From the IMG/VR virus record IMGVR_UViG_3300009506_001467, positions 1 through 61,310 of that record: a stretch of 61,310 nt of DNA; one strand, 5' to 3'. The stretch's first letter is position 1, and every line of letters begins with the position of its first letter. The DNA is from a virus. Its lineage: Duplodnaviria > Caudoviricetes. The position numbers and the translations under genes were made by a program. The notes under the pieces were generated by a model. The model was not told the DNA's origin. It saw only the letters and a program-made list of their open reading frames with translations, and did no database searches. Below, piece after piece: positions 8,980-34,454 of the stretch.

Positions 8980-9163
8980 GTCCCCAGCCCTACCTTTTTG
9001 ATAACGCCCCGCGGCATCGGGGCAATCCTCTCACCATAGAGCAGAGCGACCTCACCCACCGCTCTGCTCTACCTCTTTGCCCAGCGAACACAAAACACTC
9101 TCGGGGCAGAGAGTGCTCACTGCTCGAGAGTGCTTTGGCTTGTGCGATCGGCTGCGGTTTATG
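8972..9163 (-). ncRNA. Candidate structured non-coding RNA
   Basis: Intergenic, downstream of the minus-strand promoter at 9169-9198; several nested stems, e.g. tagagcagagcg/cgctctgctcta, gggcaa/ttgccc, aggtagg/cctacct. Confidence 0.45.
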
Positions 9164-10749: not shown

Positions 10750-12537
10750 ATGCCCTGGAACGCGAGCGATGCTACCAAGTTCACGAAAAAGGCCCGCACT
10801 CGCAAACAAAAGCGAGACTGGGCAGCAGCAGCCAACAGAGTGCTCAAGAGCTGCCTAGCAAGCGGGGGCTCAAGCAAAGAGTGCGAGAGCAAAGCGATCC
10901 GCACTGCCAACTCTACATTGGAGGAAACAATGCCAGCACTGCAAGAGGCAGACACAAAAAAGATCGGCAATCGCACACACGATCGCGGGGACTTTCTCAT
11001 TGTTGAGGACCCAGACTCGATCTCCACCTGGCACTTGCCCGTCAAGGTTAGGGGCAAACCAAACAGAGCTCTCGCTGGTGCAGCGTGGGCCGCTCTGTTC
11101 TCTGCTGGTGGCTTTCGCGGCAAAAAGTACAGTGGTCCAGATCCAGCAGGAGCAAAGCGCAAGCTCAAAGCTCTGTACAAGGCACAGGACTGGGATCTGC
11201 CGACGACCGAGGCAGAGGTCGAGGAGATGCTCGCAGAGCTTGAGCTCGAGCTCTCAGAGTATGAGGGCTATCTCTACCCCGATCGCTACTCGTGGTCGGC
11301 AACGTCCTTTGCCCAACTCGATGCGGAGGAGGAAGCAGCCGAGCGAGTTGAGAACGTACAGGAGCGCATGGCCCAGCTCTGGATGCTGTTCGGCAACGTG
11401 CTGCACAGCCCAGAGATCACAGACAAGAGCACTGCTCTGCGCTCGATCTTTGATGAGTTTCTAGAGGTTGCCGGGTTTGCTCTCTCGGGCAACGAGCAGC
11501 CCAGCGAGCCGATGGAGGAGCATGCCGCACTGCTCTCTCTCTCAGAGCTCGATTCCGCAGAGCTCGCAGAGCTTGACGTGAGCTCTCGATCTCCGCGCCG
11601 TCTGCCTGTGCTCGTGGACTTTTCGATCATCAAGCCGGGCTTCGGCAACAAGAGAGACAAACGCTACTACTCGGAGGCAGTGCTCTCTAGAGATGGGCAA
11701 GTGTTCTCAGGAGTCGATGTCTTTGCGACCAACCATCTCGAGGAGGAAAAGAGCGAGCGCACAAAGGTCGGCAAAGTGCGCTCTGTGCGCGGTCTCACCG
11801 AGAGTGGTCTTGTTGGACAGTTCTTGATCTACGACCCGGACATGGCAGAAAAGACCCGCAACCGCGCCGATGCTGGCGAGCTCTCTACACTAGAGTGCTC
11901 GATCTATGCGACGGGCATGGGGCGTGAGGGCACCATTGAGGGTCGTGAGGCTTTCATAGTGGAACAGATCACCTCGGCGGCGAGCGTTGATCTGGTGTCA
12001 AAAGCAGGAGCGGGAGGGCATGCTCTATCCCTCTCTGAGATGGAAGGAGAAACGAACATGACAGGCAAGACCAAGGAACCCATTGTGGAGGGGGAACAGG
12101 AGGAAGTACAGATCGAGGAACAGGACGCAGAGACACCCGATGCTCAGGCCGACGCACAGGACGAGCCGGAAACACAGGCAGACGACGTGCAGGACGAGCA
12201 GCAGACCGAAGGAGAAGAGGAAGCGGCAGAGAGCGCCGATCTGTTCACAAGTGAGCAGATCAAGGACGTGCTCGATGAGACTGACCTCTCGCCCGAGGCG
12301 CAAACCTGGATCAAGCGTGGGACGTATGCAAGCAAGGAGGAGCTGGACCAAGCGATCGCAGAGATGAAAGCCCTACTCCTGTCTCAAGGCGGTGGTGCTG
12401 GTCGCCCGTTTGGTCTGGGCGAGAGTGAGACGGCTCCGAACGAGCAGCAGAGTCCCGCAGAGATCGAGGAAGGAAAGCGAGTACGGTTCAACGAGATCAT
12501 GGCGAGGGTCGATCCGTCCTACGCACAGCGCATCTAG
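10750..12537 (+). CDS. Prohead protease/scaffold fusion with a ChaB-like N-terminal extension
   Basis: IIKPGFGNK...YYSEAVL...NH...SI...SVDLVSKAGAGG protease-like core; acidic coiled-coil C-terminus; upstream of the capsid genes. Confidence 0.7.
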   Translation: MPWNASDATKFTKKARTRKQKRDWAAAANRVLKSCLASGGSSKECESKAIRTANSTLEETMPALQEADTKKIGNRTHDRGDFLIVEDPDSISTWHLPVKVRGKPNRALAGAAWAALFSAGGFRGKKYSGPDPAGAKRKLKALYKAQDWDLPTTEAEVEEMLAELELELSEYEGYLYPDRYSWSATSFAQLDAEEEAAERVENVQERMAQLWMLFGNVLHSPEITDKSTALRSIFDEFLEVAGFALSGNEQPSEPMEEHAALLSLSELDSAELAELDVSSRSPRRLPVLVDFSIIKPGFGNKRDKRYYSEAVLSRDGQVFSGVDVFATNHLEEEKSERTKVGKVRSVRGLTESGLVGQFLIYDPDMAEKTRNRADAGELSTLECSIYATGMGREGTIEGREAFIVEQITSAASVDLVSKAGAGGHALSLSEMEGETNMTGKTKEPIVEGEQEEVQIEEQDAETPDAQADAQDEPETQADDVQDEQQTEGEEEAAESADLFTSEQIKDVLDETDLSPEAQTWIKRGTYASKEELDQAIAEMKALLLSQGGGAGRPFGLGESETAPNEQQSPAEIEEGKRVRFNEIMARVDPSYAQRI

Positions 12538-21893: not shown

Positions 21894-24682
21894 GCCAGCA
21901 ATTGCCACAGGACGGGGTGCGCCTTGTTGTGGAGGGTGTGTCTCAATTCATAGACAACATGAACAAGGCGGGTGTTGCTTGGGACAGGGTATCTGCCTCG
22001 TTCACGGATGCAAGCGGCAAGACCAGAACCTTAAGCGTCAGCACAGACAAGGTTGCCAGTTCTGTTGCAAAAGCGGGATCTGCGGCGAGCCAAGCCCTTA
22101 GCCCGTTTGATCAAATGATCAAGGGGTTCGGCCAGGGGGCGATCGGCGCGACCGGAATGAATGGCGCCTTGTCTGCCCTCTCTGGCGGTGTTGCGGGCGT
22201 CTCTGTCATGCTCGGTCAAGTGCTCGTTGCGGCGCTCAAGAAGGTTGGCGAGGCCCTCAAAACGATCTTTATAGATCTCCCCAAGGAAGCGGCCCCGCTC
22301 GAGGGCATCTCTGCTCAGTTCTCTACACTGACTCAAAACATCGAGGGCGGCTCCCGTAAAATGATGGCTGCGCTACAAGCGGGATCATCGGGTATGATCC
22401 CCATGCGCGATCTCATGACCCAGTTCAACAACGCCTCCGCTCTCGTGTCCGACCAGTTCGCTCAGAACCTACCGCAAGCACTGGGTCTCCTGGGGAAAGT
22501 CTCTGCCGCCACGGGCAAGGATATGAATTACCTCATGGAGTCTCTGGTCAACGGCGTTGGTCGTGTGACTCCTCTGGTCATTGATAACCTGACGGTTCAG
22601 GTCTCGCAAGCAGAGGCCACCGCCCGCGCCACGGAGATGTTCAACAAGCAAAAGGAGGCGCTCTCCAAGCTCGAGCAGCAAACCGCGCTCAACACTCTAG
22701 TGATGGAGAAACTAGAGGCCAAGTACGGCGCACTGCCTGACATCGGTGCGACAACCTCCGCGCAGCTCGCGGTCATGTCGGCGCACTTTCAGAACATCAA
22801 GGACATACTCGGGCAAGCAATGCTGCCCGCTTTCAATACTCTACTGACCACGCTCAATACTCTGGTGGGTACGATCTCGAGCATGCTCTCTGAGGGCGGC
22901 GAGCTCGAGCCCTGGCTGATCCGCATCGGGGCGCTGACGTCTCTATGGGCAGACGGTATAGCTATTCTGGGCGAGGCCCTTGGTCTCATAGCGCCCAAGG
23001 CGGCGGGCATGTACGACAACATTGCCAAGAGCGTATTTGGGATCATCGAGGACGCCCTCACATGGGGCGTTGAGCTGATCGCCCAGTTCGCAGCAGGAAT
23101 GGCAGAGGCAGCGAGCAGCATCCTGATCCAGGCACTTAACTTTATAGGCGGTATACTCGAGCAGTGGCTGCTGGGCGCATCGCCGCCCAAGATCGCGCCC
23201 GGCATCGAGCAATGGGGGATCAAGACCTTTGAGCGATACCTCACGGGCATGACTGAGGCAGACTTTGGCATACTCGAGGGCATCCAGAAGCCACTGCAAA
23301 AGATCCTCGAGGGTCCAGCTCTCGCCAACGTCTCCAAGATCATCTCAGGCGCCCTCGCTGGCGGCGATCGGGCTACGATCTTTGATACCGTCTCAAAGTC
23401 TGCCGGGATCTTTGGCAGTGCGATCAATAAAATGATCGGTCTGCAATTCGAGCTCGCGGACTCTACAAAAGCAGTAGAGGAGGCAGAGCTTGCTCTCGAG
23501 CAAGCACGCAACAAACTGCTCGGCCAGCAGGACGATGTGAACAAGGCCACCGTTGAGTACAACCGCTTGCTCAGAGAGGGCGCAGATCCAGCAGTTCTCA
23601 AGGAGAAACTGGCACAGATCAACGCAGCGGAGGAGGCCATGCGCCTGACTCAAGATCAGGTGCAGACCCAGGATGAGTTTATCTCGAGCGAGAAGCAGAG
23701 GATCGAGGGCATCAAGACAGAGGCAGAGCTGCAAAAGAAACTGGTGGATCAGCTCCTCGGGGTCAATGATGCGCTCCAAGTACAAGAGGAAAAAGGCAAG
23801 AAAGGCGCAGCGGGTGTCCCCACGATAGCCCCTGAGGTATCTGGCCTTACGGGCACGCTCGGCACGAGACTGGGCACAGCGATCGAGGGCATGAAAGAGA
23901 AGCTCAAGGAAAAGTTCAGAGACATCTTTGCTCCTCTGAGCGAGGCGTGGGACAAGATCGTGCTCAAGGTCGGGGACATCGGCACTGCCTGGGAAAAGTT
24001 CAAGGCCAAGGTCGGCTCTGTCTGGGATGATCTCAAGCTCAAGTACCCGGTGCTGCAAGACATCGAGGACCTGATCCAGAACCTCAAGACGTCGATCCCA
24101 GAGCTGGCAACAGAGCTTTCGGACAAGTTTCATAGTGCGTGGTCCAAGATCTGGGGCATTCTCTCAGGTCAAGAGGACGGGGGCATCCTAGGCGCACTGA
24201 CCGCAGTGTGGGATTTTCTCAAAGACTCATGGGGCACGATTATGGAGTCGGACGCAGCGAAAGCGATCAAGACCTTCACTACCGATGTGATCGAGAGACT
24301 CAAGACAGGCGTGGAGGGCATTGTAACCGCTGTGGGCAACATGATTGCAAAGATCGGGGAGCTCGCCCGCCTGCCGCTTGACAAGATCAGAGAGGCGCTC
24401 GGCTGGGGTATCGCAGAGTCGCCCGCGCCGCTTGCGCTTGGTCTGCAACAGATCAACAGAGAGCTTGTCAAGATGAGCGGATCGAGCTTGCCGAGTCTGG
24501 GGGGCTCTATGCGTATGATGCCCGCCATGGCTCCTGTGTCAAGCTCATCTATGACAACGAACAACAACAGTCCGATCCAGATCACTTTCTCTGGCCCGGT
24601 GACGATCGGCAGCACAAACGACATGCGCCAGTTTACGGCACAGCTCGAGCGCACTGTGCGCAATGTGATGGAGAGGCGATAA
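21890..24682 (+). CDS. Tape measure protein
   Basis: 930 aa, Ala/Gly/Leu-rich and helical, with spaced Trp/Phe repeats, a coiled-coil section and the typical NNNSPIQITF C-terminus. Confidence 0.88.
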   Translation: MSQQLPQDGVRLVVEGVSQFIDNMNKAGVAWDRVSASFTDASGKTRTLSVSTDKVASSVAKAGSAASQALSPFDQMIKGFGQGAIGATGMNGALSALSGGVAGVSVMLGQVLVAALKKVGEALKTIFIDLPKEAAPLEGISAQFSTLTQNIEGGSRKMMAALQAGSSGMIPMRDLMTQFNNASALVSDQFAQNLPQALGLLGKVSAATGKDMNYLMESLVNGVGRVTPLVIDNLTVQVSQAEATARATEMFNKQKEALSKLEQQTALNTLVMEKLEAKYGALPDIGATTSAQLAVMSAHFQNIKDILGQAMLPAFNTLLTTLNTLVGTISSMLSEGGELEPWLIRIGALTSLWADGIAILGEALGLIAPKAAGMYDNIAKSVFGIIEDALTWGVELIAQFAAGMAEAASSILIQALNFIGGILEQWLLGASPPKIAPGIEQWGIKTFERYLTGMTEADFGILEGIQKPLQKILEGPALANVSKIISGALAGGDRATIFDTVSKSAGIFGSAINKMIGLQFELADSTKAVEEAELALEQARNKLLGQQDDVNKATVEYNRLLREGADPAVLKEKLAQINAAEEAMRLTQDQVQTQDEFISSEKQRIEGIKTEAELQKKLVDQLLGVNDALQVQEEKGKKGAAGVPTIAPEVSGLTGTLGTRLGTAIEGMKEKLKEKFRDIFAPLSEAWDKIVLKVGDIGTAWEKFKAKVGSVWDDLKLKYPVLQDIEDLIQNLKTSIPELATELSDKFHSAWSKIWGILSGQEDGGILGALTAVWDFLKDSWGTIMESDAAKAIKTFTTDVIERLKTGVEGIVTAVGNMIAKIGELARLPLDKIREALGWGIAESPAPLALGLQQINRELVKMSGSSLPSLGGSMRMMPAMAPVSSSSMTTNNNSPIQITFSGPVTIGSTNDMRQFTAQLERTVRNVMERR

Positions 24683-27600
24683 TGAGCGAGGCAAGAAACT
24701 ATTACACGATGTTCTCCAAGTTTTTGATCACAAACGGAACGATCGAGGTCGATCTGCTCTCGCTCTCATCCACAACAGGCCTTCACCTTGTCACGTGGGA
24801 GCCGAGCATCGCCCAGCCAAAGAGCTCTAGTGTGTGGTCTGATCCCGCGCTCTCAGATGGCGGCGATCCACACACAGAGGCGCTCGCTAACGTCGAGGAG
24901 GCCATGACCTTTGACGTTGCAGCGTGGAACGATCCCGATCTCTACAAGATGGTACAGGATCTACGCTACCTTCTCAGAGAAGCAAAGCGATACTGGATGA
25001 CCGGGTATCAGGTAGACCCCGTGTGGATTGTGCGCCAGGGGATCTGTGAGGACAACCCCGGTTACTCGATGGTCAAGGCGGGGCTCACCCCGACAGATGA
25101 CGATCCGTTCCACGACCCGGTAGCGCCTGAGTTCGGCAGCGTTGCCTACATAGACTGGCCCATGACTCTGATCAGAGAGCCGCTCTGGCGAGACGTTGAG
25201 CCGGGGGATACAGAGTGCCTCCCCGCCTATGGTAGCAAGGAATACTGCTACCCCTGCCACGTGGAGTTCGATGGTGACTCGGGTGATATTACGATACCAG
25301 ACGTTGCTGCGGTTCAAGATCTTGCTGATAACGCGATGACTGTAGAAGCATGGGTCAGAGCAGATGGCTACGGCCTGGACAATGAGGGCTGGATCGCCGC
25401 AAAGTATAGCAGCACTGGCTGGTTGCTTATCCTGCATGGTACTGTGGGCCTTTGGGCACAAATAGAGTGCGCGGTCACTGATAGCTACGCCAGGTCATTC
25501 TCGCTTACTCCGGATGGGGAATGGCACCATGTCGCATTCACCTGGGATGATAGTTCATACAGGCATCCTAGATTGTGGGTGGATGGAAAAGAAGCAGATT
25601 ATGCGGATGTGCAGGAAAGAAGCGGTGCGATTGTCTCCGATGTTGGGAGTGTTCTAACGATTGGAGAGAGACTAACAGGAATCAACACCTGGGAAGGTGG
25701 AATCGGCTGGTCGCGCATCTCAGACATCGTGCGCTATGACCGGGACTTTACGCCTCCCTCACGGTGCCGCTTGCCAGAGGATGATGGTAACACGGTTGGC
25801 GCGTGGATTGGCTATGAATGCTCTGGTTCTACCATCGTGGACCACAACGACCCCACGGCTGGCACATTGGACGGAACCCTGACCAGTGGCACGTTCGATT
25901 GCGATTGCTGGACCCTTGCAGGGCAGATCGGGGATGAGGGAATCGGGTATCTTGAGTACCGCAACCTGGACACCGTCGCACAGGTGACGGACGATGCTGC
26001 ACTCCAAGACCTTGCCGACGCGGCGATGACCATTGACGGTTGGTTCAGGGCGCGCTTTGCAACATCCTCTGGAAACCTGCTCATTGAAAAGGGACAGGCA
26101 GGTGGAGCAGGCTGGCAGGTCTGGATCACTGCTAGCGGCTCACTACTCGTGCGCATTGAGTGCGCCGTTACGGATGCTGTGTCCTATGCGTCCGCGGCGA
26201 TTACCTGGGGTGAGTGGCAACATTGGGCCATCACCTGGGACGATGCATCGTACACGGTAGCACGGGTATGGATCAACGGGGTGGAGGACACAAACACGAG
26301 CACGGCACGCAACGGCGCGATTGTCTCGGATGTCGGACGAGACATGTACATCGGCGTGCGCCTCGGTTCTGCCAACGAGTTTGACGGGGATATCGGTTGG
26401 GTTCGCATCTCGGACGAGGTTCTCTGGACGTCAGACTTTGACGACGATCTACCCGAACGCTGCGAACTGCCCGTGGTCGATGCGAACACGATCTGGCTCG
26501 GCATACAGGAGGGTGAGGGTGTCGTGGCCTACGATCACAGCGGCAACGACAACCACGCCGCTCTCTCTGCGCTCAATTGGGGCAAGGACTGTTGCGGTGA
26601 CATCGCAAGTGTGGACGTCACAGAGATCAAGAACGCCTATGTGATCTGTGATGGCGCGGATACGATCATCACCTACACCGACGCCGCGCAGATCCAGGAC
26701 TTGCATGATGCGGCGATGACCGTGGAGGCTTGGATACGGGCCGACTCGGCGGGAGAGTCAAACCAGGGGCACATCATTGGCAAGGATGCAAATGAGACAC
26801 TGGGCTGGTTCGTTCGCATGACGGCAACGGGATTCTACGCCGAGATCGTGTGTGCTGTGGCTAGTGGGACGGTTGCAACAACCTTTGTGGCTGCTGGCGT
26901 CTCTTTCGGGGAGTGGCTGCATATCGCCGTCACCTGGGATGATGCTACATATAACTACCCGCGCCTGTGGATCAATGGAACAGAGTACTCAACGACAACG
27001 AACAACAGGAACGGTGCGGTGGCTACAGATGTTGGATCAGATCTCGTTGTCGCAAACCAGCAAGACCTTGCAGCGACCTTTGACGGGGACATCGGGTGGG
27101 TGCGTGTCTCTCCCTCTATCCTCTACACGGGTACGTTCACCCCTCCCGACCGATGCACGGCTTGGTGGGATCTAGTTCTGGGTGGTGTCGCACTGCTCAC
27201 GATCTTTGATGAGCATGGCGAGGTTGCCCTGGATTACACTCCCTACTACAACCACGGCATCATCGCGGATGGGGACTGGGGATCATCCTGTGCGGTCGAG
27301 CAGGACATCTCATGTGCCTACTCACTCGGGGCGAGCTTGCCAGCGGAAGTGTCGGCAACATGTCTAGAGATCAACTATGTGATCAACTCACACGTCCGAA
27401 GGCAGTTTACTCACATGTTCATTGCGGACTGGGCGGGTGGAGCAGTTTGGAACTATAGCGGAAACCTGATCGGAACAGAGGGAGAGATCATACTGCTCCC
27501 GGCTGCGCCAGCGGTCAACGATCGGATCTTTATAGGGATCGCGAGCGGCCACCCAGCAGCTCAGAGAATGGGAAACATTGTCTGGGATATTGCCACGCCA

Positions 27601-28842
27601 GCAGAGGACATAGACTTTGCTGTGAGAGTGCTGCAAACAGGTGGTGCCTCACAATCCGTGTACGCAACGTATCACAGGGACAACACATCGACCGATCCGA
27701 CCACGATCGTATCGCCCAAGGATGCGCTTTCGGTAGAGGGAATCAATGCTCTTGTGTGGACCGCTGGCGCTTGGGCAACCCCAGAGACGATCAACGGCAT
27801 TCTCGGTTACTGGCTGCGCTATGAGGTTGGGGCGCTGGGCGGCAGTCCCGTGGTCCCGATCGCTGCAAGTGCGCCCTATACGGTGACGTGGCCTTATGTG
27901 ACCGTACACACGGACGATCTCGGCGGTGATGAGCTCTTGCTGATCAAGGCGACTCTGCACAACCAGTCCGATCTTGACTATCAAGGGTATGGCTCAACGA
28001 CCAAGCTCCTTGTAGGCTCAAGAGAGCTTGATCGAGGAGAGGACTTTACAGCCTATCTGCTCTGTGGCTCAGAGGAGCTGCCCCCTGGACAGACCAACAC
28101 AGCGGGAACCAATGCTGCACTGAACACAAACGGCACAGGCGATCCAAACTCGCCCAAGTCCGAATGTCGCTATACTCCCGTGGCAACGCCCGAGGCGCTG
28201 GCAACTCGTCTCACGATCTCTCTAGACTCTACACTTGGTCCACAGTTTCATGGCAACTACCACTGTTATGCTCGTTTTGGTTCATTCAACGGCGGCACAT
28301 GGCAAAGCAGAATAGCAGTTCGGAATGGGAGCAGCGGCCAAGTACTCTACGGAGAAACTGTAACACACGGAAATGGCCTTCGGTTCGCAACCTTCGATCT
28401 AGGAAGCATTACCCTGGGAGAAGCAAACCCGGACACTGAGTTTGATCAGATCAACATATACTGGCAAGCGGGACGGGTGACAGGCGGCACATATCTCGAG
28501 CTCGTTGATCTGTTCATTCTGCCCGTGGACGAGTGCTCTGGGATCTTTGACATGCTGGGCACAAGTAGTTTCCTCACGCCCGACTATGCAGAGCTGGATA
28601 GTGCAACGTTTCCACGAGAGCAGATCATCGCAGTGGTGAGGGATGAGAACGATCTGCAAGTCGGCAGAATGCTCGCGAATGCCACGATCCTGGGCTTGCA
28701 GCCCAAGAGAACGCAGCGACTATGGTTTTTCTCATATGGCCTGGACGCGTCGAGCAACGAGCTCGCCTATCCCTACATCATGTACACGGTCGGGCTCGAG
28801 CGGGTGCAACGCTATTGGTCTATGCGGGGAGATGAGACATGA
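24682..28842 (+). CDS. Large tail protein with three LamG/concanavalin A-like domains
   Basis: Three repeats of QDL.D.AMT(V/I)(E/D).W.RA...W.H.A.TWDD...W(V/I)(D/N)G...G.IGW.R(I/V)S; follows the TMP. Confidence 0.8.
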   Translation: MSEARNYYTMFSKFLITNGTIEVDLLSLSSTTGLHLVTWEPSIAQPKSSSVWSDPALSDGGDPHTEALANVEEAMTFDVAAWNDPDLYKMVQDLRYLLREAKRYWMTGYQVDPVWIVRQGICEDNPGYSMVKAGLTPTDDDPFHDPVAPEFGSVAYIDWPMTLIREPLWRDVEPGDTECLPAYGSKEYCYPCHVEFDGDSGDITIPDVAAVQDLADNAMTVEAWVRADGYGLDNEGWIAAKYSSTGWLLILHGTVGLWAQIECAVTDSYARSFSLTPDGEWHHVAFTWDDSSYRHPRLWVDGKEADYADVQERSGAIVSDVGSVLTIGERLTGINTWEGGIGWSRISDIVRYDRDFTPPSRCRLPEDDGNTVGAWIGYECSGSTIVDHNDPTAGTLDGTLTSGTFDCDCWTLAGQIGDEGIGYLEYRNLDTVAQVTDDAALQDLADAAMTIDGWFRARFATSSGNLLIEKGQAGGAGWQVWITASGSLLVRIECAVTDAVSYASAAITWGEWQHWAITWDDASYTVARVWINGVEDTNTSTARNGAIVSDVGRDMYIGVRLGSANEFDGDIGWVRISDEVLWTSDFDDDLPERCELPVVDANTIWLGIQEGEGVVAYDHSGNDNHAALSALNWGKDCCGDIASVDVTEIKNAYVICDGADTIITYTDAAQIQDLHDAAMTVEAWIRADSAGESNQGHIIGKDANETLGWFVRMTATGFYAEIVCAVASGTVATTFVAAGVSFGEWLHIAVTWDDATYNYPRLWINGTEYSTTTNNRNGAVATDVGSDLVVANQQDLAATFDGDIGWVRVSPSILYTGTFTPPDRCTAWWDLVLGGVALLTIFDEHGEVALDYTPYYNHGIIADGDWGSSCAVEQDISCAYSLGASLPAEVSATCLEINYVINSHVRRQFTHMFIADWAGGAVWNYSGNLIGTEGEIILLPAAPAVNDRIFIGIASGHPAAQRMGNIVWDIATPAEDIDFAVRVLQTGGASQSVYATYHRDNTSTDPTTIVSPKDALSVEGINALVWTAGAWATPETINGILGYWLRYEVGALGGSPVVPIAASAPYTVTWPYVTVHTDDLGGDELLLIKATLHNQSDLDYQGYGSTTKLLVGSRELDRGEDFTAYLLCGSEELPPGQTNTAGTNAALNTNGTGDPNSPKSECRYTPVATPEALATRLTISLDSTLGPQFHGNYHCYARFGSFNGGTWQSRIAVRNGSSGQVLYGETVTHGNGLRFATFDLGSITLGEANPDTEFDQINIYWQAGRVTGGTYLELVDLFILPVDECSGIFDMLGTSSFLTPDYAELDSATFPREQIIAVVRDENDLQVGRMLANATILGLQPKRTQRLWFFSYGLDASSNELAYPYIMYTVGLERVQRYWSMRGDET

Positions 28843-30020
28843 TCCCGGCACACAACATCTGTATCCACGTCTGGAAGCCCCTGATCGTCGCCGGGACATC
28901 ATACGTTCCCCGCGGCTCTCTGATCACCGACTCGCTGATCGAGCGCATCGGGCCGGGAGACTATTCTCACACGACTCAAGCAGACGGCTGGTGGTGGAGC
29001 GCATCGCTGCGACTCTCGGGATCTATCTCCTACATAGACTGGTGGACGCTCAACGGTCTGGGTCTGCACATCGAGACGTACTCTCCCGATCGCACCTTGA
29101 TCTTTGCGGGCTTTGTCAATTCTCTAGATGCAAGCGGCGGCACGTTCTCAGGTCGTCAGGGAGCTCTGCTTGACATCGGCAACCGCATCGAAGTACAGTA
29201 CTCCCCCATTCTCGATGCAACGCTTGCCCAGCCCCTAGTCGGACCGCAACGGGTAACAACGATCGCAGAGGACACGGACTCACAAGATCGTTATGGGATT
29301 TTTGATCAGACCGTGAGCGGCGGCGAGCTGCTGGACGATGGCGTAACAGACCACGCCACACAGTACAGAGATCTCTATCTCTATGAGAACACATGGCCTC
29401 AACACTCTGAGCAGTTCTCCCTAGAGGGCTCTGCGCCCGCCTCGATCACACTAGAGATTCTAGGCTACGGACACATGTTCGATGCGATCAACTATTCCGA
29501 TCTGAACACAAACACGGTCACGATCACGACCAAGCTCGGTTACGTACTCGCAGCGGATCCCAATGGTCTGTTCAACACCTCAACCAGTTACATTGCCACC
29601 AACGCAGTGCTCGCGCCTCGGTATGATGACAAGGGACGCTCTGGGCTCACTGTGATCGAGAACTTGATCAAGCTCGGGGATGTCTCAAGCAACCGCTACC
29701 TGTGGGGGGTCAAAGCAGATCAGACCCTACACTACTGGCAAGCGCCCACGGATCCATACTATGAGCACAGAATCAGAGATCGTGTTCCTCGAGTGCTGCG
29801 CTACGGCACGTCTCAAGAGATCTACCCGTGGGACATCGAGCCGGGACGAATCGTGTTCCTGTCTGACTACCTGCTGGGTCAGAGCATACCAAGTGATCGC
29901 CGTCGCGATCCCAGATCTGTGTTCATCGAGCAGGTGCAGTATACCTATCCCTGGGACGTCTCGATCAGCGGAGCGCAGCAGTTCAAGCTCCCACAATTCC
30001 TAGCCAACGTGAGGGGATGA
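28839..30020 (+). CDS. Tail/baseplate hub-type protein
   Basis: ATGA overlap; EDTDSQDRYG motif; tail-tip position. Confidence 0.6.
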   Translation: MIPAHNICIHVWKPLIVAGTSYVPRGSLITDSLIERIGPGDYSHTTQADGWWWSASLRLSGSISYIDWWTLNGLGLHIETYSPDRTLIFAGFVNSLDASGGTFSGRQGALLDIGNRIEVQYSPILDATLAQPLVGPQRVTTIAEDTDSQDRYGIFDQTVSGGELLDDGVTDHATQYRDLYLYENTWPQHSEQFSLEGSAPASITLEILGYGHMFDAINYSDLNTNTVTITTKLGYVLAADPNGLFNTSTSYIATNAVLAPRYDDKGRSGLTVIENLIKLGDVSSNRYLWGVKADQTLHYWQAPTDPYYEHRIRDRVPRVLRYGTSQEIYPWDIEPGRIVFLSDYLLGQSIPSDRRRDPRSVFIEQVQYTYPWDVSISGAQQFKLPQFLANVRG

Positions 30021-30021
30021 G

Positions 30022-30804
30022 ATGAAACGAGCGCAGCTCAACGATCCACGAATAGACGATCTCACCACCTCGTTTTTCAACAAGCAAGACGATGTGTGGC
30101 TGCAGGATGGAAACGATGTTCACCCGGATGATGACGATTATGGTCTGTTCGATCGCCTGATCAACTATGGTTACGATCCGATCGAGCACTGGCGCTATGG
30201 CACGGATGATGACGCGGGCTGGACGGGTTGGGCTGCCTATGCGGGCTTTGTGACTCCAACGTCACGAGTGCGAAACTACTCAACCTTGAGTATAGCCCAC
30301 GGTTCGGCAACCAGAATGTTCTACTATCGTACTCTTGCTGGAGCACCAACGACCCTAAAAACTCGTTGCCGAGCGTACTGCTGGCGTACTCTTGACATGG
30401 GCATGATGTGGGATGATGGCGTAGACGCGGGCGATAACCTAGGGGCCAATAACTTTTTTCGCTATATGGTCCACGTGAGCGCAACGAACACAAACGCCCG
30501 CTTGCGTACGGAATACAGACTTGCCGCTGGCGCAATCACGACAACCGACTACCTTGTATCGACCGTAGCCAAACAAGACGGCACAGGAATCACTATGCAA
30601 GCGACCGGGACATTATGGACCGCTTGGAGCGTGTTCATCTTTCTGGAAGGCGAAAAAACGCTTCCAACAACACCTCTCTTGATCGGTACAGTAGGCGGCG
30701 CTGGACTGAACTTCACACCCACTAGGATAGGTGTGTATGCACAGTCGCCCGGCGGCCTGGCGATCGTCGGCGGTTGGGATTGGTATGATGAGGAGATCAC
30801 ATGA
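30022..30804 (+). CDS. Putative tail fibre / receptor-binding protein
   Basis: Last tail gene before lysis; beta-rich, Thr/Gly/Trp-rich C-terminal domain. Confidence 0.5.
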   Translation: MKRAQLNDPRIDDLTTSFFNKQDDVWLQDGNDVHPDDDDYGLFDRLINYGYDPIEHWRYGTDDDAGWTGWAAYAGFVTPTSRVRNYSTLSIAHGSATRMFYYRTLAGAPTTLKTRCRAYCWRTLDMGMMWDDGVDAGDNLGANNFFRYMVHVSATNTNARLRTEYRLAAGAITTTDYLVSTVAKQDGTGITMQATGTLWTAWSVFIFLEGEKTLPTTPLLIGTVGGAGLNFTPTRIGVYAQSPGGLAIVGGWDWYDEEIT

Positions 30805-32486
30805 GCGATAACCCCTACATCTGCGCTATACACGAGCCCCCGCCTGATCCGTGGCTCGAGCAGTACATGACAGTGAGCGGCAGAGCCGCAGGTTGGATCG
30901 TGCACACTCACGGACTCGGGCACAATCCAGCAGACTTGAGCGGGTACGACTACTCGAGCTGGTCGACCAGAGGATACGGCAACATAGCACGACTCAACAA
31001 CGGCTATGGACCGACGCAAGGAACGATCCCGATCGATCCTGCTCAGTATGCGAACTTTGCCATGCGAGTGCAGAACTGGGTCAAGAGCTCGAGCGGTTGT
31101 CGGCACTGGGTCATCGGCAACGAGCCGAATGCCGGAGTGGAGGGCAAGCACTCAAAAGAGCATTATGCGCAGTGTTTCAAGCTCTGCTATGCGATGATCA
31201 AAGAGGTACAGCCAGACTCGGTTGTGATGGCTGCACCCGTCGCCATGTGGAACGTTGAGACAGAGGACTGGCTCGTGTACTACTCACAGGGGCTCGAGCT
31301 CTGCGCTCCTGTGGATGCGCTCTGCTGGCACACGTACACACATGGATCAGACTCGAGCCTGATCACAGACATGACGACCATGAACGTACCCTATCAAGAT
31401 CGCCTGTACCACTTTCGAGCGTACCAGGATCTCTGGGCGTGGACGCCTGACAGATACAAGAGCTATGATGTCTACCTCACAGAGATGGATCAAGGTGACG
31501 TCGGCGGTGTGCGCAACCCCTGGCGCAACGAGCAAGGGGTGAACTGGCTGCAAGCCGCCTATGCAGAGCTCAACGAGTGGAATGAGCAGCACAGCGGGCA
31601 GATCAAGTGTGGTGCTGCGTACAGGTGGCCCAAGATAGATGAGTGGTACATTGAGAGCAAGGAACACGTCTACACAGACATGCGCCTTGCTGTGGACAGA
31701 GCATACAGAACAGAGGAGGAAACAGACATGATCTTGATCGGCAGTGAATCATTCAATGGTCCCTATGTCCCGAGAGACGATCCGAACCCGCCATACGATC
31801 AGAACGTGGGCGAGCTCAAGATCCAGCAGGGATGGGAAGGGTTCTGGGTATGGCAGGGTGTGAACCCACCCGATCCAACGCAGATGAGGCGCCCTGAGTT
31901 CTTTGTCTCTCACGGGGACGATCCGGACGATCAGCTCGATCTCTGTCAGGCGGTACAAACCACGTTCTCCACATCGGATAACTGTGTGTGGAAAAAGTTC
32001 ACGACCGCCCCCGGCGCAGAGCTGCTGGTCAACGTGCGAGCAATGATCGACAGTGATCCGCTTGCGCAGCATGCTCTAGTGATGGGCATAGACCCCCTGG
32101 GCGGCGAGGATATGTTCTCGAGCTCTGTGCAGTGGAGCGAGTGGCTCAACCAGTCTGTGCCCATGAAAAAGTGGCACGATCTGACCATAGACGGAGTGAT
32201 CGCACAGGCAAACAGGTGTACTGTGTTCTTGCGCAGCAAGACGGACTATGCCAAGAACTCGGCGGGGCACTGGGACGATCTCGAACTGTACGCAGATCTA
32301 GAGAGCCCGCCCGACCCGCCCGACCCAGGAGAGGGACATACGATCACAACCGTCTCGATCACCTATCTGGACGGAAAAGAGATCGCCCGCTCAGAGTCTA
32401 CGGCACAGATCACATGCGGTGACGTGGACCCTCAGGCATGCGCTCTGGCACAGCAGCTCGCCGCGATGCTCTGCTTGAGTGCATAA
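30801..32486 (+). CDS. Putative endolysin: GH-A clan glycoside hydrolase TIM barrel plus a CBM-like domain
   Basis: WVIGNEPN acid/base motif, HTY, VYLTE nucleophile motif; C-terminal jelly-roll-like domain ending HWDDLEL, then a Pro-rich linker. Confidence 0.7.
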   Translation: MSDNPYICAIHEPPPDPWLEQYMTVSGRAAGWIVHTHGLGHNPADLSGYDYSSWSTRGYGNIARLNNGYGPTQGTIPIDPAQYANFAMRVQNWVKSSSGCRHWVIGNEPNAGVEGKHSKEHYAQCFKLCYAMIKEVQPDSVVMAAPVAMWNVETEDWLVYYSQGLELCAPVDALCWHTYTHGSDSSLITDMTTMNVPYQDRLYHFRAYQDLWAWTPDRYKSYDVYLTEMDQGDVGGVRNPWRNEQGVNWLQAAYAELNEWNEQHSGQIKCGAAYRWPKIDEWYIESKEHVYTDMRLAVDRAYRTEEETDMILIGSESFNGPYVPRDDPNPPYDQNVGELKIQQGWEGFWVWQGVNPPDPTQMRRPEFFVSHGDDPDDQLDLCQAVQTTFSTSDNCVWKKFTTAPGAELLVNVRAMIDSDPLAQHALVMGIDPLGGEDMFSSSVQWSEWLNQSVPMKKWHDLTIDGVIAQANRCTVFLRSKTDYAKNSAGHWDDLELYADLESPPDPPDPGEGHTITTVSITYLDGKEIARSESTAQITCGDVDPQACALAQQLAAMLCLSA

Positions 32487-32503
32487 AAAAAGAAGGTGGA
32501 CAC

Positions 32504-33031
32504 GTGTTCTCTGATATAAAAGTTCTGGTCGTGGATGATGACTATGACATAAGACAGGTCACCCGCAAGGTGCTTGCCTCCATGTCGTTCACTGTGGATG
32601 TGTCGGACACACTGAGCGGGGGACTGGACAAGATCGAGGAAGCGGACATCTTGCTGCTTGATCTGCGACTCAAGAACGGCATGGGGGACACATTGCTGCA
32701 ACGATGGCGGGACGAGAAGCGGGGGCCAGTGATCGTCATGTCGGGGTACGTCGATCAAGCTCTCGAGAATGAGCTGCTTGAGAGCTATGTGGATAACGTA
32801 CTGCACAAGCCAGTACCGCCCTCAGTGCTGCGCTCCGTGTTCTTTCGGATCGGCTGTCTTGTGCGAGACGCAAAGAAACTGTCCGAGCTCACTTGTGAGA
32901 TCTCAGAGCTCAGTGAGAAGATCTCGCGGCTGCAAAGGCGGGTCTGGATCTTGACGGGGGCAGCGGTCGGGTTCGGAATCGCCGCGGGGGTCAGTGTGTC
33001 CCCGCTTCTCTCTCTGATCGGGGTCGGTTGA
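32504..33031 (+). CDS. Response-regulator receiver domain + coiled coil + C-terminal TM helix
   Basis: VLVVDDD, DILLLDLRL (phospho-acceptor Asp), VIVMSG and LHKP are all present; GTG 32504 follows AAGAAGGTGG. Confidence 0.85.
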   Translation: MFSDIKVLVVDDDYDIRQVTRKVLASMSFTVDVSDTLSGGLDKIEEADILLLDLRLKNGMGDTLLQRWRDEKRGPVIVMSGYVDQALENELLESYVDNVLHKPVPPSVLRSVFFRIGCLVRDAKKLSELTCEISELSEKISRLQRRVWILTGAAVGFGIAAGVSVSPLLSLIGVG

Positions 33032-33059
33032 TCATGATCATCATGATCATGTACATGAT
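33029..33059. repeat. ATCATG/ATGATC hexamer cluster
   Basis: tgatcatgatcatcatgatcatgtacatgat in the intergenic gap. Confidence 0.6.
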
Positions 33060-33080
33060 ACACTAGAAAAGGAGATCAAC

Positions 33081-33467
33081 ATGTTGTCAACAGTAGTACC
33101 GCTGGTAGGCTGGGTCTCTCTCGTACTGCTCATGGCGCAGCCTGTGGACTGGACATCTCCCGCCGAGGTGCTGATCTGGATCGTCTCTGGGGCGGGTGCT
33201 GGCGCGATCGCGTTTGGGCTCTGGGAGCTCTTTGAGCGATGGTGGCCCAAGCTCGCAGAGCTCTCCGCTTTCGTTGAGCGAGTGATCACACTTGCGCTCA
33301 CCGTGCTCGTGGCGCTCATTGCTTACGGGTTGCAGCTCGCGGCGAGCTATAGAACGGTCCCAGAGACGTGGATGGGAGCAATAGAGGAGATCTTTGCGAT
33401 CGCAGCGATGGCGATCATGACCGCTCTCACCATACACGGGGTCAAGCACGAGATCCAGCACTCTTGA
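33081..33467 (+). CDS. Putative holin (multi-TM membrane protein)
   Basis: 128 aa with about four hydrophobic helices; AAGGAG RBS; end of the lysis cassette. Confidence 0.6.
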   Translation: MLSTVVPLVGWVSLVLLMAQPVDWTSPAEVLIWIVSGAGAGAIAFGLWELFERWWPKLAELSAFVERVITLALTVLVALIAYGLQLAASYRTVPETWMGAIEEIFAIAAMAIMTALTIHGVKHEIQHS

Positions 33468-33570
33468 CAGAGCCCCCCGGCTCGTGCTACAATGGTAGCA
33501 CTATAGGGGAGGGCACACAGCCCAACAAGAAAAGAGACCCGCTCCCGAGAGGGCGTGAGTCTCTTTTTCT
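33464..33570 (+). ncRNA. Candidate sRNA unit (promoter plus a transcript of about 70 nt)
   Basis: TTGACA-18-TACAAT at 33464-33493, no ORF, terminator at 33527-33570. Confidence 0.45.
33527..33570. terminator. Bidirectional intrinsic terminator between the convergent late and early arms
   Basis: aagaaaagagac...gtctctttttct hairpin flanked by A and T tracts. Confidence 0.75.
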
Positions 33571-33684
33571 GTGTGAGCTGATCTGTGTGCTACAGATCGC
33601 CCCACGTTCTGTACCAGTGTGCAGAGCTGCCTTCTCCTTCCGCATCATCCCACAGCTCTGCATCCAGAGCGGACCCGGCCTCAA

Positions 33685-33963
33685 CTATGAGCTCTGGGCA
33701 ATCGTACTTTGCGAGAGCTCGCCCCCGCATTCTGGACATGTCGCTGCGCAGCTCTCGCTCTCCCAGTCCTCTCTAGTCTCTACCGTCTCAAATTGAGCGC
33801 CGCACTCGCTGGGCTCATAGCCGTTGTTGGTCCACTCCCAACCGCGCCCGAGTCCACAGTACCAGCCTACTTTTACAGTCTCGCACTCTCTGGGCAGACC
33901 GTGCACAGGATCAGCTCGCGGCTCGATCGTCCCTTCCCATGAGATGTTCTCGAGATCGCTCAT
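33685..33963 (-). CDS. Small zinc-ribbon protein
   Basis: WYCG...ECG and CPECGG motifs. Confidence 0.55.
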   Translation of the reverse strand: MSDLENISWEGTIEPRADPVHGLPRECETVKVGWYCGLGRGWEWTNNGYEPSECGAQFETVETREDWESESCAATCPECGGELSQSTIAQSS

Positions 33964-34454
33964 TGCTTGAGATCCAGTATAGACTTGCCCCGGTAGATGT
34001 GAAAGTGCTCTGAGATCTGCGCCTCGGGCAAGATGACATCACAGCGATCAACCTCTACAGGCAGACGACTATAGCCGACCGTGCCGTTCTCAGTGTAGAC
34101 GACATAGAACCGATGTGCCGCTGCTCTGCGCTCAATGAGCACGTCCCCGACCTCGGGCAGTGCGGGCTCTTTGAGTCTGCGCATGTGCTGGATCGCGGTC
34201 TGGTTGGTGAGCAGTTTCCAGTACCCAGCATAGGCGAGCTCAACCTCAACGAGATCGCCCTCAGTGAGCTCGAGCGGGACCTGTGTCGCCCACTTGCCCA
34301 TCTCCCAGCAGAACGTCCTCGTCCTCGCGTTGTGCAGGATCTGTGGCTCATCCGTCTCGATGTCCACATCATAGATCGAGTGCTCGACCTCGAGCATACA
34401 GATCTTGCGATTATGGGCTTCCCACGTTGCTGTGATCGTTGCAAGTGATCTCAT
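33960..34454 (-). CDS. Hypothetical protein
   Basis: AGGAGG RBS; ATGA overlap. Confidence 0.6.
   Translation of the reverse strand: MRSLATITATWEAHNRKICMLEVEHSIYDVDIETDEPQILHNARTRTFCWEMGKWATQVPLELTEGDLVEVELAYAGYWKLLTNQTAIQHMRRLKEPALPEVGDVLIERRAAAHRFYVVYTENGTVGYSRLPVEVDRCDVILPEAQISEHFHIYRGKSILDLKQ

Follow-up and report, generated by a model that had tools for sequence, protein, structure and literature searches.

The window analysed here, the complete 61,310-bp genome of a tailed phage (Caudoviricetes; IMG/VR record IMGVR_UViG_3300009506_001467), carries a gene encoding a 175-amino-acid protein composed of a CheY-like receiver domain (REC), a coiled coil and a hydrophobic C-terminal end. In the window and its relatives, this gene has a conserved place at the 3' end of the block of late tail-fibre genes, beside the gene of a signal-less glycosidase or carbohydrate-binding module (CBM) protein and directly upstream of that of a small protein with three or four transmembrane (TM) segments. 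The phospho-site of the receiver is complete and conserved, the helix leading from alpha5 to the membrane end is rigid, and no kinase is encoded by the phage. We propose that the product is a membrane-tethered, phosphorylation-gated regulator of the phage lysis module, and we give this reading a probability of about 45%; the role in lysis, the phosphorylation and the identity of the holin are what we infer. The locus consists of three close-packed genes on the + strand, which carry the following features.

30801–32486, + strand: candidate cell-wall glycosidase of 561 amino acids (AlphaFold2, Foldseek, conserved residues, homologue fusions)
32492–32499, + strand: Shine-Dalgarno-like GAAGGTGG, 4 nt 5' of the GTG start of the receiver gene (read from the sequence)
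32504–33031, + strand: gene of the 175-amino-acid tail-anchored receiver (REC, coiled coil, hydrophobic anchor), stop codon included
32522–32836, + strand: CheY-like receiver domain, with the codon of the phospho-acceptor D53 at 32660–32662 (Pfam PF00072, Foldseek against the PDB)
32879–32941, + strand: heptad coiled coil, residues 126–146, continuous with alpha5 (a/d pattern, AlphaFold2 helix)
32942–33028, + strand: predicted C-terminal hydrophobic Gly-rich membrane anchor, residues 147–175 (Kyte-Doolittle 1.9)
33081–33467, + strand: small membrane protein of 128 amino acids with four hydrophobic segments, holin candidate of "type A", with the ribosome-binding site AAAGGAG

The tail-anchored receiver and its family

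The receiver gene likely starts at the GTG at 32504, behind GAAGGTGG, rather than at the ATG at 32438, since the ribosome-binding site, the public gene call (P0001, 175 amino acids), the orthologue in a related 64-kb phage (L002) and most of the family members agree on this start. The orthologue in L002 has the equivalent GTG, preceded by GGAGG, and 28 of the 54 family members fetched begin with MF, while others show a similar short lead-in ahead of the receiver strand. The Response_reg family (PF00072) matched the protein with an E-value of 3.4e-15 (56.6 bits, the cut-off being 30.2), and a six-frame search of the genome with the same family gave a single match, at 32522–32836 (57.8 bits). 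With NCBIfam, only partial receiver matches to many regulators were obtained, all of them far under the cut-offs. The active-site quintet is complete: it includes the acidic pair after beta1 (in D11-D12-D13), the Asp after beta3 (D53, in the motif ADILLLDL), the Ser/Thr after beta4 (S80, in VIVMSG) and the Lys after beta5 (K102, followed by P103).

The AlphaFold2 model built with the family alignment has a predicted local distance difference test score (pLDDT) of 94.4 and shows a (beta-alpha)5 fold with strands at residues 6–10, 30–34, 49–52, 76–80 and 98–101 and helices between them. Foldseek superposed the receiver domain on the receivers of RstA, KdpE, PhoB, CpxR and Spo0F with a root-mean-square deviation of 1.5–2.4 Å and TM-scores of 0.8–0.89. 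In the model, alpha5 continues as a single helix from residue 106 to 160, after which come a short break and a final helix (166–171). This long helix contains the short heptad coiled coil, of parallel type, LSELTCEISELSEKISRL (residues 126–143), and the hydrophobic a/d positions read from the sequence keep a strict 3-4 spacing over residues 126–150 (L126, L129, I133, L136, I140, L143, V147, and L150). Residues 147–175 are uncharged and Gly-rich, with a Kyte-Doolittle value of 1.9. Since the anchor is modelled as a helix, a kink and a short helix, a C-terminal TM helix is a prediction only. Comparison with the L002 orthologue shows the receiver domain to be under strong purifying selection (dN, the nonsynonymous divergence, 0.17; dS, the synonymous divergence, saturated; dN/dS ~0.05); the coiled coil, 38% identical, is free to change in sequence, and the anchor is intermediate.

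The original prediction, made from the sequence of the window, thus held as regards a receiver with all its catalytic landmarks lying between a putative endolysin and a multi-TM gene, the heptad coiled coil that follows it, and the lack of a DNA-binding output (no such domain was found in the protein with Pfam or NCBIfam). The C-terminal TM helix that it proposed was confirmed as a hydrophobic segment, the helix-kink-helix shape leaving its membrane-spanning nature at the level of a prediction. The same text had recognised no histidine kinase in the genome, and none was detected: no kinase family is present among the Pfam matches of the 78 open reading frames (ORFs) of this phage, and neither HATPase_c nor HisKA reached the threshold in any of four records, namely this phage and three related ones (0/4 each, with positive controls).

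When 1.84 billion representatives were searched exhaustively with the profile, 14,421 matches at E ≤ 1e-3 were obtained, which were mostly generic receivers. The family was drawn from the 150 best profile matches and includes P0002 and 54 other proteins of 133–215 amino acids, most of which can be aligned with the query almost from end to end, the tail being covered as well. The architecture of REC, helix and hydrophobic C-terminus was found in 52 of the 54 members fetched besides P0002; the two without a hydrophobic end (P0180 and P0188) were left out, and the alignment accordingly comprises 54 sequences, namely those 52 along with P0001 and P0002. The profile search yielded about 50 clusters with the same REC-coiled-coil-anchor architecture. 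The word-based search found one close relative only, P0002, which is 71% identical and is located on a 64-kb contig.

The mean column identity in the family alignment is 24%, W68 and P75 being invariant. The residues of the phospho-site are kept in nearly all the sequences: position 11 is acidic in 54/54, and D12 is present in 46/54, D53 in 52/54, S/T80 in 49/54 and K102 in 51/54. The hydropathy of the C-terminal 18-residue window is at least 1.6 in 49 of the 54 members. The tail follows a common plan, in which one or more basic residues precede 12–19 hydrophobic residues often ending in G or GG, often followed by E/D/K-x-x-P and then by an amphipathic end of 8–18 residues. The helix joining the receiver to the anchor is about 32 to 75 residues long, depending on the member. 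The spacing between K102 and the start of the anchor clusters at 33, 37, 44 and 50 residues (2 modulo 7 in 17/54), which is no more than suggestive because the sequences are related and the definition of the anchor start is crude. One sub-group (P0118, P0123, P0128, P0137, P0157, P0182, P0189, P0208, and P0225) carries an additional N-terminal extension of 15–30 residues, amphipathic in appearance, which may be a second membrane-binding element.

The family was found solely on metagenomic contigs that are short or of phage size. In the 30 family clusters looked up, no member has a real name, and all of them are metagenomic, with largest contigs of 0.8–60 kb (64 kb in the case of P0002); one cluster bears an automatic "OmpR family" label, which its 174 residues cannot justify. 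No family member was identified among the GenBank phages, where the 175-amino-acid protein gave six weak receiver-only matches (at most 32% identity). A search of 401 sampled Chloroflexota genomes with the family profile (E ≤ 1e-22) gave two matches, both to longer proteins and in their receiver part only; scoring was limited to eight candidates per genome, and the negative holds only for what was searched. A scan of genome contigs with P0089 drew in only generic receivers (at most 37% identity, mainly in the receiver part), and for this reason says little about absence from cellular genomes. Single-protein scans of viral sequences with P0123, P0128 and P0114 gave nothing, a further alignment-based search of viral contigs matched 20 stretches with no relative among them, and the ESM Atlas gave no usable match to the coiled-coil/anchor tail. 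Outside the family, the nearest relatives that the profile search returned are receivers forming part of long multi-domain proteins, and the receiver folds found in BFVD belong to phages and giant viruses and are named response regulator or hybrid kinase.

The neighbouring genes and their products

Eight loci carrying a receiver gene of this family were obtained. They are given below with the upstream gene, the receiver gene and the downstream gene, in that order.

Window, complete phage: GH-A/CBM protein of 561 amino acids; REC, 175 amino acids; four-TM protein, 128 amino acids
L002, complete 64-kb phage: GH-A/CBM protein of 558 amino acids; REC, 175 amino acids; four-TM protein, 132 amino acids
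L004, 11.6-kb fragment, REC 35% identical: GH-A/CBM protein of 538 amino acids; REC, 171 amino acids; multi-TM protein, cut by the contig end
L123, metagenome contig: GH-A/CBM protein, cut; REC, 179 amino acids; multi-TM protein, 135 amino acids
L114, metagenome contig: CBM-only protein, cut; REC, 166 amino acids; multi-TM protein, 103 amino acids
L098, metagenome contig, near-identical to L114: CBM-only protein of 229 amino acids; REC, 166 amino acids; contig end
L085, complete 60-kb phage G001: 94-amino-acid protein; REC, 215 amino acids; three-TM protein, 115 amino acids, then a 292-amino-acid protein (N-terminal TM segment and CBM-like domain)
L141, 1.4 kb: no upstream sequence; REC, 174 amino acids; non-membrane ORF and portal-like ORF

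A small multi-TM gene lies directly downstream of the receiver gene in six of the seven loci with downstream sequence. A CBM-like protein is encoded at most two genes away in all seven loci with upstream sequence; it adjoins the receiver gene in six of them and is two genes off in L085. The full enzyme, with a catalytic domain of glycoside hydrolase (GH) clan GH-A, is present in four loci (window, L002, L004, and L123). The family member P0081 and the 562-amino-acid hydrolase homologue P0007, each found on a 3,548-bp contig, are probably on the same contig. The CBM-like beta-sandwich occurs as a stand-alone protein near the receiver gene at 9005–9883 of L085 (G001), where it has an N-terminal TM anchor, and at 604–1293 of L098. 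All the versions of the CBM-like protein end with a Pro-rich linker and a short C-terminal helix.

The AlphaFold2 model of the 561-amino-acid protein (pLDDT 85.9) consists of a TIM barrel (residues 1–300, pLDDT >90), a CBM-like beta-sandwich (about 310–500), a Pro-rich linker and a C-terminal helix. Its best Foldseek matches in the PDB are clan GH-A enzymes with CBMs, of the GH5, GH30, GH39, GH51 and GH79 types. In the 33 homologue sequences, N107, E108, H177, Y179, T227 and E228 are invariant (NEP at 107–109, TE at 227–228). The protein, as modelled, has the (beta/alpha)8 barrel, the Asn-Glu pair and the nucleophile Glu of clan GH-A, N107-E108 presumably following strand 4 and the nucleophile E228 strand 7, a strand assignment made by analogy. 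The only trace of a Pfam family is a sub-threshold match to DUF5722 (14.7 bits vs. 30.5); the search of PDB sequences gave 0 matches, and tblastn against GenBank phages gave no match. The protein shows neither a signal peptide nor a hydrophobic or TM segment, and because of this lack of a hydrophobic segment it would have to be helped across the membrane.

In 43 of the 72 non-self homologues, the precomputed Pfam annotation includes a domain from a peptidoglycan hydrolase or a wall-binding module. Six examples were confirmed (Glyco_hydro_108, Peptidase_M23 with SLT, Muramidase, Amidase_2, LysM, and SH3_3), and all these domains are located C-terminal to the GH-A part. The N-terminal GH-A domain (window 30801–31700; P0017–P0078) is an unnamed family and a candidate for a new wall-glycosidase or endolysin domain. 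Some of the GH-A homologues in P0017–P0078 lie on contigs of 136–4,091 kb, which are presumably bacterial. Two homologues named by NCBI come from Chloroflexi/Anaerolineae metagenome-assembled genomes, the sole hint as to the host, and the host lineage is probably Chloroflexota in sediments.

The 128-amino-acid protein has the small size and the number of hydrophobic segments (four) of the holin class, and a counterpart is encoded at the same position in six of seven loci. It is 50–54% identical to the 132-amino-acid protein of L002 and 36% identical to the 115-amino-acid protein of L085; a word-based homologue search found only the protein itself. The multi-TM partners fall into two types without any detectable similarity, type A in the window, L002 and L085 and type B in L004, L114 and, weakly, L123. 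None of these partners matches a holin family. It is typical of holins that a fixed position is occupied by small membrane proteins which are not orthologous, and we take the 128-amino-acid protein to be a putative holin.

The two partners had been called a putative endolysin and a holin candidate in the original prediction. The former gained support from the GH-A fold and from the homologues fused to peptidoglycan modules, and failed to match a recognised endolysin family; the latter was upheld as regards the four hydrophobic segments and the position, and has no place in a described holin family. It had also been asked whether such receiver genes recur beside endolysins, and the same architecture does recur in related and distant phage contigs, next to hydrolase/CBM genes and small multi-TM genes.

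A proposed regulator of lysis and the alternatives

The regulation might proceed as follows. The protein would be anchored at its C-terminus, with the receiver on the cytoplasmic face of the membrane, and D53 would receive its phosphoryl group from a host histidine kinase or from acetyl phosphate. Phosphorylation would alter the pairing at the alpha4-beta5-alpha5 face, and with it the way in which the coiled coil and the anchors pack or lie in register, and this might then promote or block hole formation by the multi-TM holin-like protein, alone or together with the anchor. The timing of membrane permeabilisation would be set in this way, and the hydrolase would reach the wall. The conserved rigid continuity of alpha5, coiled coil and anchor suggests that the membrane end is an output rather than a mere tether. 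In one attractive version, the system might be a dead-man switch, in which a phosphorylated (energised) host holds lysis back and the loss of phosphoryl flux frees it; either sign is possible. Taken to its full extent, the proposal is that host phosphotransfer, from a sensor kinase or acetyl phosphate, is wired directly into the membrane step of lysis, the tail-anchored receiver being a phosphorylation-switched integral subunit of the holin machinery, so that the timing of the burst reads the signalling or energy state of the host post-translationally, in uncultured phages probably of Chloroflexota. This fuller version is put forward tentatively, with about one chance in three of being right. 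The earlier interpretation, a holin or antiholin gated by phosphorylation, is partly supported.

Several points weigh against a role in lysis. The 561-amino-acid protein belongs to no recognised peptidoglycan-hydrolase or endolysin family (none above threshold with Pfam, PHROG, NCBIfam or PDB sequences), and for this protein a function as a virion depolymerase is a fair alternative, because its gene comes right after the tail-fibre genes and a CBM is present. The complete phage G001 (L085) has the CBM part only, the GH-A catalytic domain being found nowhere in its genome, and no classical endolysin is present among the best 25 of its 41 Pfam families. The 128-amino-acid protein has no significant match in Pfam or PHROG (the best being phrog_1299, "holin", at E 0.37), and neither of the two membrane proteins matches a holin, antiholin or XhlA family. 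In most members of the receiver family, the first hydrophobic stretch of the anchor is 12–19 residues long and is followed by a charged residue, so that the anchor may be monotopic rather than membrane-spanning. The loci are also few, L098 and L114 being near-identical among the eight, and in L141 the receiver gene is not followed by a multi-TM gene.

Two other explanations appear unlikely, to a similar extent. According to one of them, the protein is a membrane-tethered phosphate sink or decoy which, instead of contributing to hole formation, drains or blocks a host two-component pathway such as a stress, envelope or abortive-infection response. Bacteria are known to possess single-domain receivers that serve as phosphate sinks, and the protein is an orphan receiver having an intact, conserved phospho-site and no output domain, in a phage encoding no kinase; the membrane anchor would place it near the membrane kinases, and its nearest relatives outside the family are parts of long multi-domain proteins. 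The end of the late block, next to hydrolase/CBM and multi-TM genes, is nevertheless an odd place and time for a host takeover function, and this position is conserved, as is the rigid continuity of alpha5, coiled coil and anchor that suggests an output at the membrane end.

The other is that the genes form an envelope or virion module and not a lysis cassette: the 561-amino-acid protein would be a tail-associated depolymerase of the host surface polysaccharide, and the receiver and multi-TM proteins would serve in superinfection exclusion, in a receptor-masking switch, or in the assembly or secretion of the CBM protein. The genes do lie directly after tail-fibre-like genes, including that of a 1386-amino-acid protein with Laminin_G_3 and "virion structural protein" matches; GH-A plus CBM is the usual build of polysaccharide depolymerases, the CBM protein of G001 has an N-terminal TM segment and no catalytic domain, and M23+SLT fusions, which were seen among the homologues, also occur in tail lysins. 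Against this, the fusions to LysM, SH3_3, Amidase_2, GH108 and Muramidase indicate enzymes directed at peptidoglycan, this phage yielded no other endolysin candidate (78 ORFs, Pfam; no classical endolysin family at E ≤ 1e-3), and lysis cassettes are classically located where the late operon ends, as a hydrolase gene accompanied by a small multi-TM gene.

The least probable is a pseudo-receiver, in which the REC fold would serve a membrane protein, related to lysis or not, only for dimerisation or docking and independently of phosphorylation (it overlaps in part with the other explanations): phosphorylation-independent receiver-plus-coiled-coil proteins such as FrzS exist, and a Val stands three residues before K102 in 40 of the 54 members, at what we take to be the site of the aromatic switch residue of CheY, yet pseudo-receivers usually lose phospho-site residues, and here the whole site is kept in a family otherwise about 24% identical per column.

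The proposed regulator of lysis can be compared with several known systems. It has in common with the CheY, Spo0F, DivK-type and OmpR/PhoB-type receivers the fold, the acidic pocket, the acceptor Asp, the Ser/Thr and the Lys-Pro; unlike the CheY- and OmpR-type proteins, it is a phage-encoded orphan in which alpha5 leads into a coiled coil and membrane anchor, with no DNA-binding or enzymatic output. The phage "response regulator" ORFs (phrog_731 and phrog_5982) and the hybrid kinases of giant viruses likewise share the receiver fold, and the viral matches in BFVD, compared by name and receiver fold, are named response regulators or kinase-linked proteins. In the full text of the open-access papers searched, no description was found of membrane-anchored, tail-anchored, transmembrane or membrane-bound response regulators, nor of phage-encoded response regulators by that name, and among the papers listed on lysis cassettes none describes a receiver within a cassette.

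XhlA is small, with a coiled coil followed by a C-terminal TM segment. In the Bacillus subtilis PBSX cassette, XhlA is reported to be a membrane protein encoded beside the holin and the endolysin, and xhlA, xhlB and xlyA are all needed for lysis or vesicle release (PMC5589764); XhlA/XhlB/XlyA constitutes a precedent for a coiled-coil/TM helper acting together with a holin. XhlA differs in that it has no sequence relationship with the phage protein (PF10779) and no receiver domain, and in the gene order, the hydrolase coming first in the phage module. The likeness to XhlA suggested earlier did not survive as a relationship: PF10779 gave no match in any of the four phage records even at E ≤ 10, with positive controls, and no Pfam match was obtained at E ≤ 0.1, and homology of the receiver protein with XhlA was rejected.

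The T4 RI, N4 gp62/gp63, P1 LydB and lambda S107 types are lysis-module proteins that time the triggering of the holin in response to a signal (PMC11413866; PMC12642591); the "Receiver domain" of N4 gp63 is a mere name for a cluster of mutations (PMC12642591). None of these antiholins and lysis regulators, nor any other lysis regulator known, has a CheY-type receiver, and their known inputs are superinfection or membrane potential, not phosphotransfer. The LytSR system is cellular and acts via transcription, through a DNA-binding regulator. LytSR-LrgAB/CidAB of Firmicutes links two-component signalling to holin- and antiholin-like membrane proteins (PMC5675857). There the control is transcriptional, whereas the phage receiver is itself a membrane protein of the module, and control in the phage module would for that reason be post-translational. 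The actinobacteriophage proteins LysF1a (two TM segments) and LysF1b (one TM segment and a cytoplasmic part) are encoded along with lysins and are both needed for efficient, timed lysis (PMC13056207). They provide a precedent for paired holin-like proteins, LysF1b differing in its N-terminal TM segment (N-out, C-in) and in having no receiver. By analogy, the receiver protein would be most like an XhlA-type helper or an antiholin in its working, and is a member of neither. It may plausibly combine a receiver domain having a new output with a lysis module having a new regulator.

The inputs to phage lysis timing known so far are the holin concentration, the membrane potential and superinfection. 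If the proposal is true, host two-component or acetyl-phosphate signalling would be a direct post-translational input to phage lysis clocks, and thus a new class of input, and a membrane anchor or pore regulator would be a new class of response-regulator output. The idea is directly testable, since the family is compact (~170 amino acids) and well modelled and single-residue tests are possible at D53. A by-product of the analysis is the unnamed GH-A domain family repeatedly fused to peptidoglycan hydrolases, a candidate wall-glycosidase or endolysin domain in Chloroflexota-type hosts.

Other features of the genome

The record is a complete genome with direct terminal repeats, 144 bp being exactly repeated at both ends, and 0 tRNA genes were found in the window. 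The genes on the + strand, from about 850 to 33467, encode a terminase, a capsid protein, and beta-helix, BNR and Laminin-G proteins, and they are followed by a long minus-strand block encoding a helicase, Dam, an actin-like protein and HNH. The structural-side genes (+ strand, 1–33 kb) include those of Radical SAM, Sortilin-Vps10/BNR and beta-helix (NosD-like) domain proteins. The receiver locus forms the 3' end of the late structural block. Directly before it come the gene of the 1386-amino-acid protein, which has three Laminin_G_3 stretches and the PHROG "virion structural protein" match, and two unknown genes (393 and 260 amino acids); the genes from 24682 to 33467 are close-packed. Of the sequencing runs listed as containing the phage sequence, none is an RNA run, and the single DNA run may be the source sample. 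Promoter-like sites at 24–35 kb are no commoner than in shuffled sequence, with only weak ones between the fibre genes and the receiver gene, and GenBank phages gave no DNA match to window 30000–34000.

The end of the locus shows several sequence elements. A terminator-like hairpin at 32984–33005, within the anchor-coding end of the receiver gene, has eight pairs (six of them GC) and is followed by a T/C-rich run; it may be due to chance, the terminator-like sites in the region numbering 10 vs. 5.5 ± 2.7 in shuffles. The spacer between the receiver and membrane-protein genes (33029–33075) consists of ATGATCA-like repeats, both in the window and in L002. GATC is about four-fold over-represented in the whole window (919 observed vs. 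~231 expected from the base composition), and a Dam-type methyltransferase (PF05869) is encoded by the phage. The cluster of GATC sites in the spacer was considered as a special element and rejected, because such clusters are common throughout the genome as a result of this over-representation.

A near-perfect sigma-70-type promoter (TTGACA, 18 nt, TACAAT, with TG; 11/12) is present at window 33464–33600, where it begins within the stop codon of the 128-amino-acid gene and is directed into the gap ahead of the convergent minus-strand genes. At the equivalent place in L002 (~10984–11180), there are two TTGACA...TACAAT pairs followed by a stem-loop with a T-run. This site may give rise to a small RNA or an antisense transcript; Rfam gave only a sub-threshold Thr_leader match at 32900–34100 (21.8 bits, E 0.21). 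An actin-like protein (ALP_N plus MreB-like_C) is encoded in the minus-strand block of the window (~34–50 kb) and in G001, with E-values of 1e-21 and 1e-18, and its presence in both complete phages hints at plasmid-like segregation or a phage cytoskeleton.

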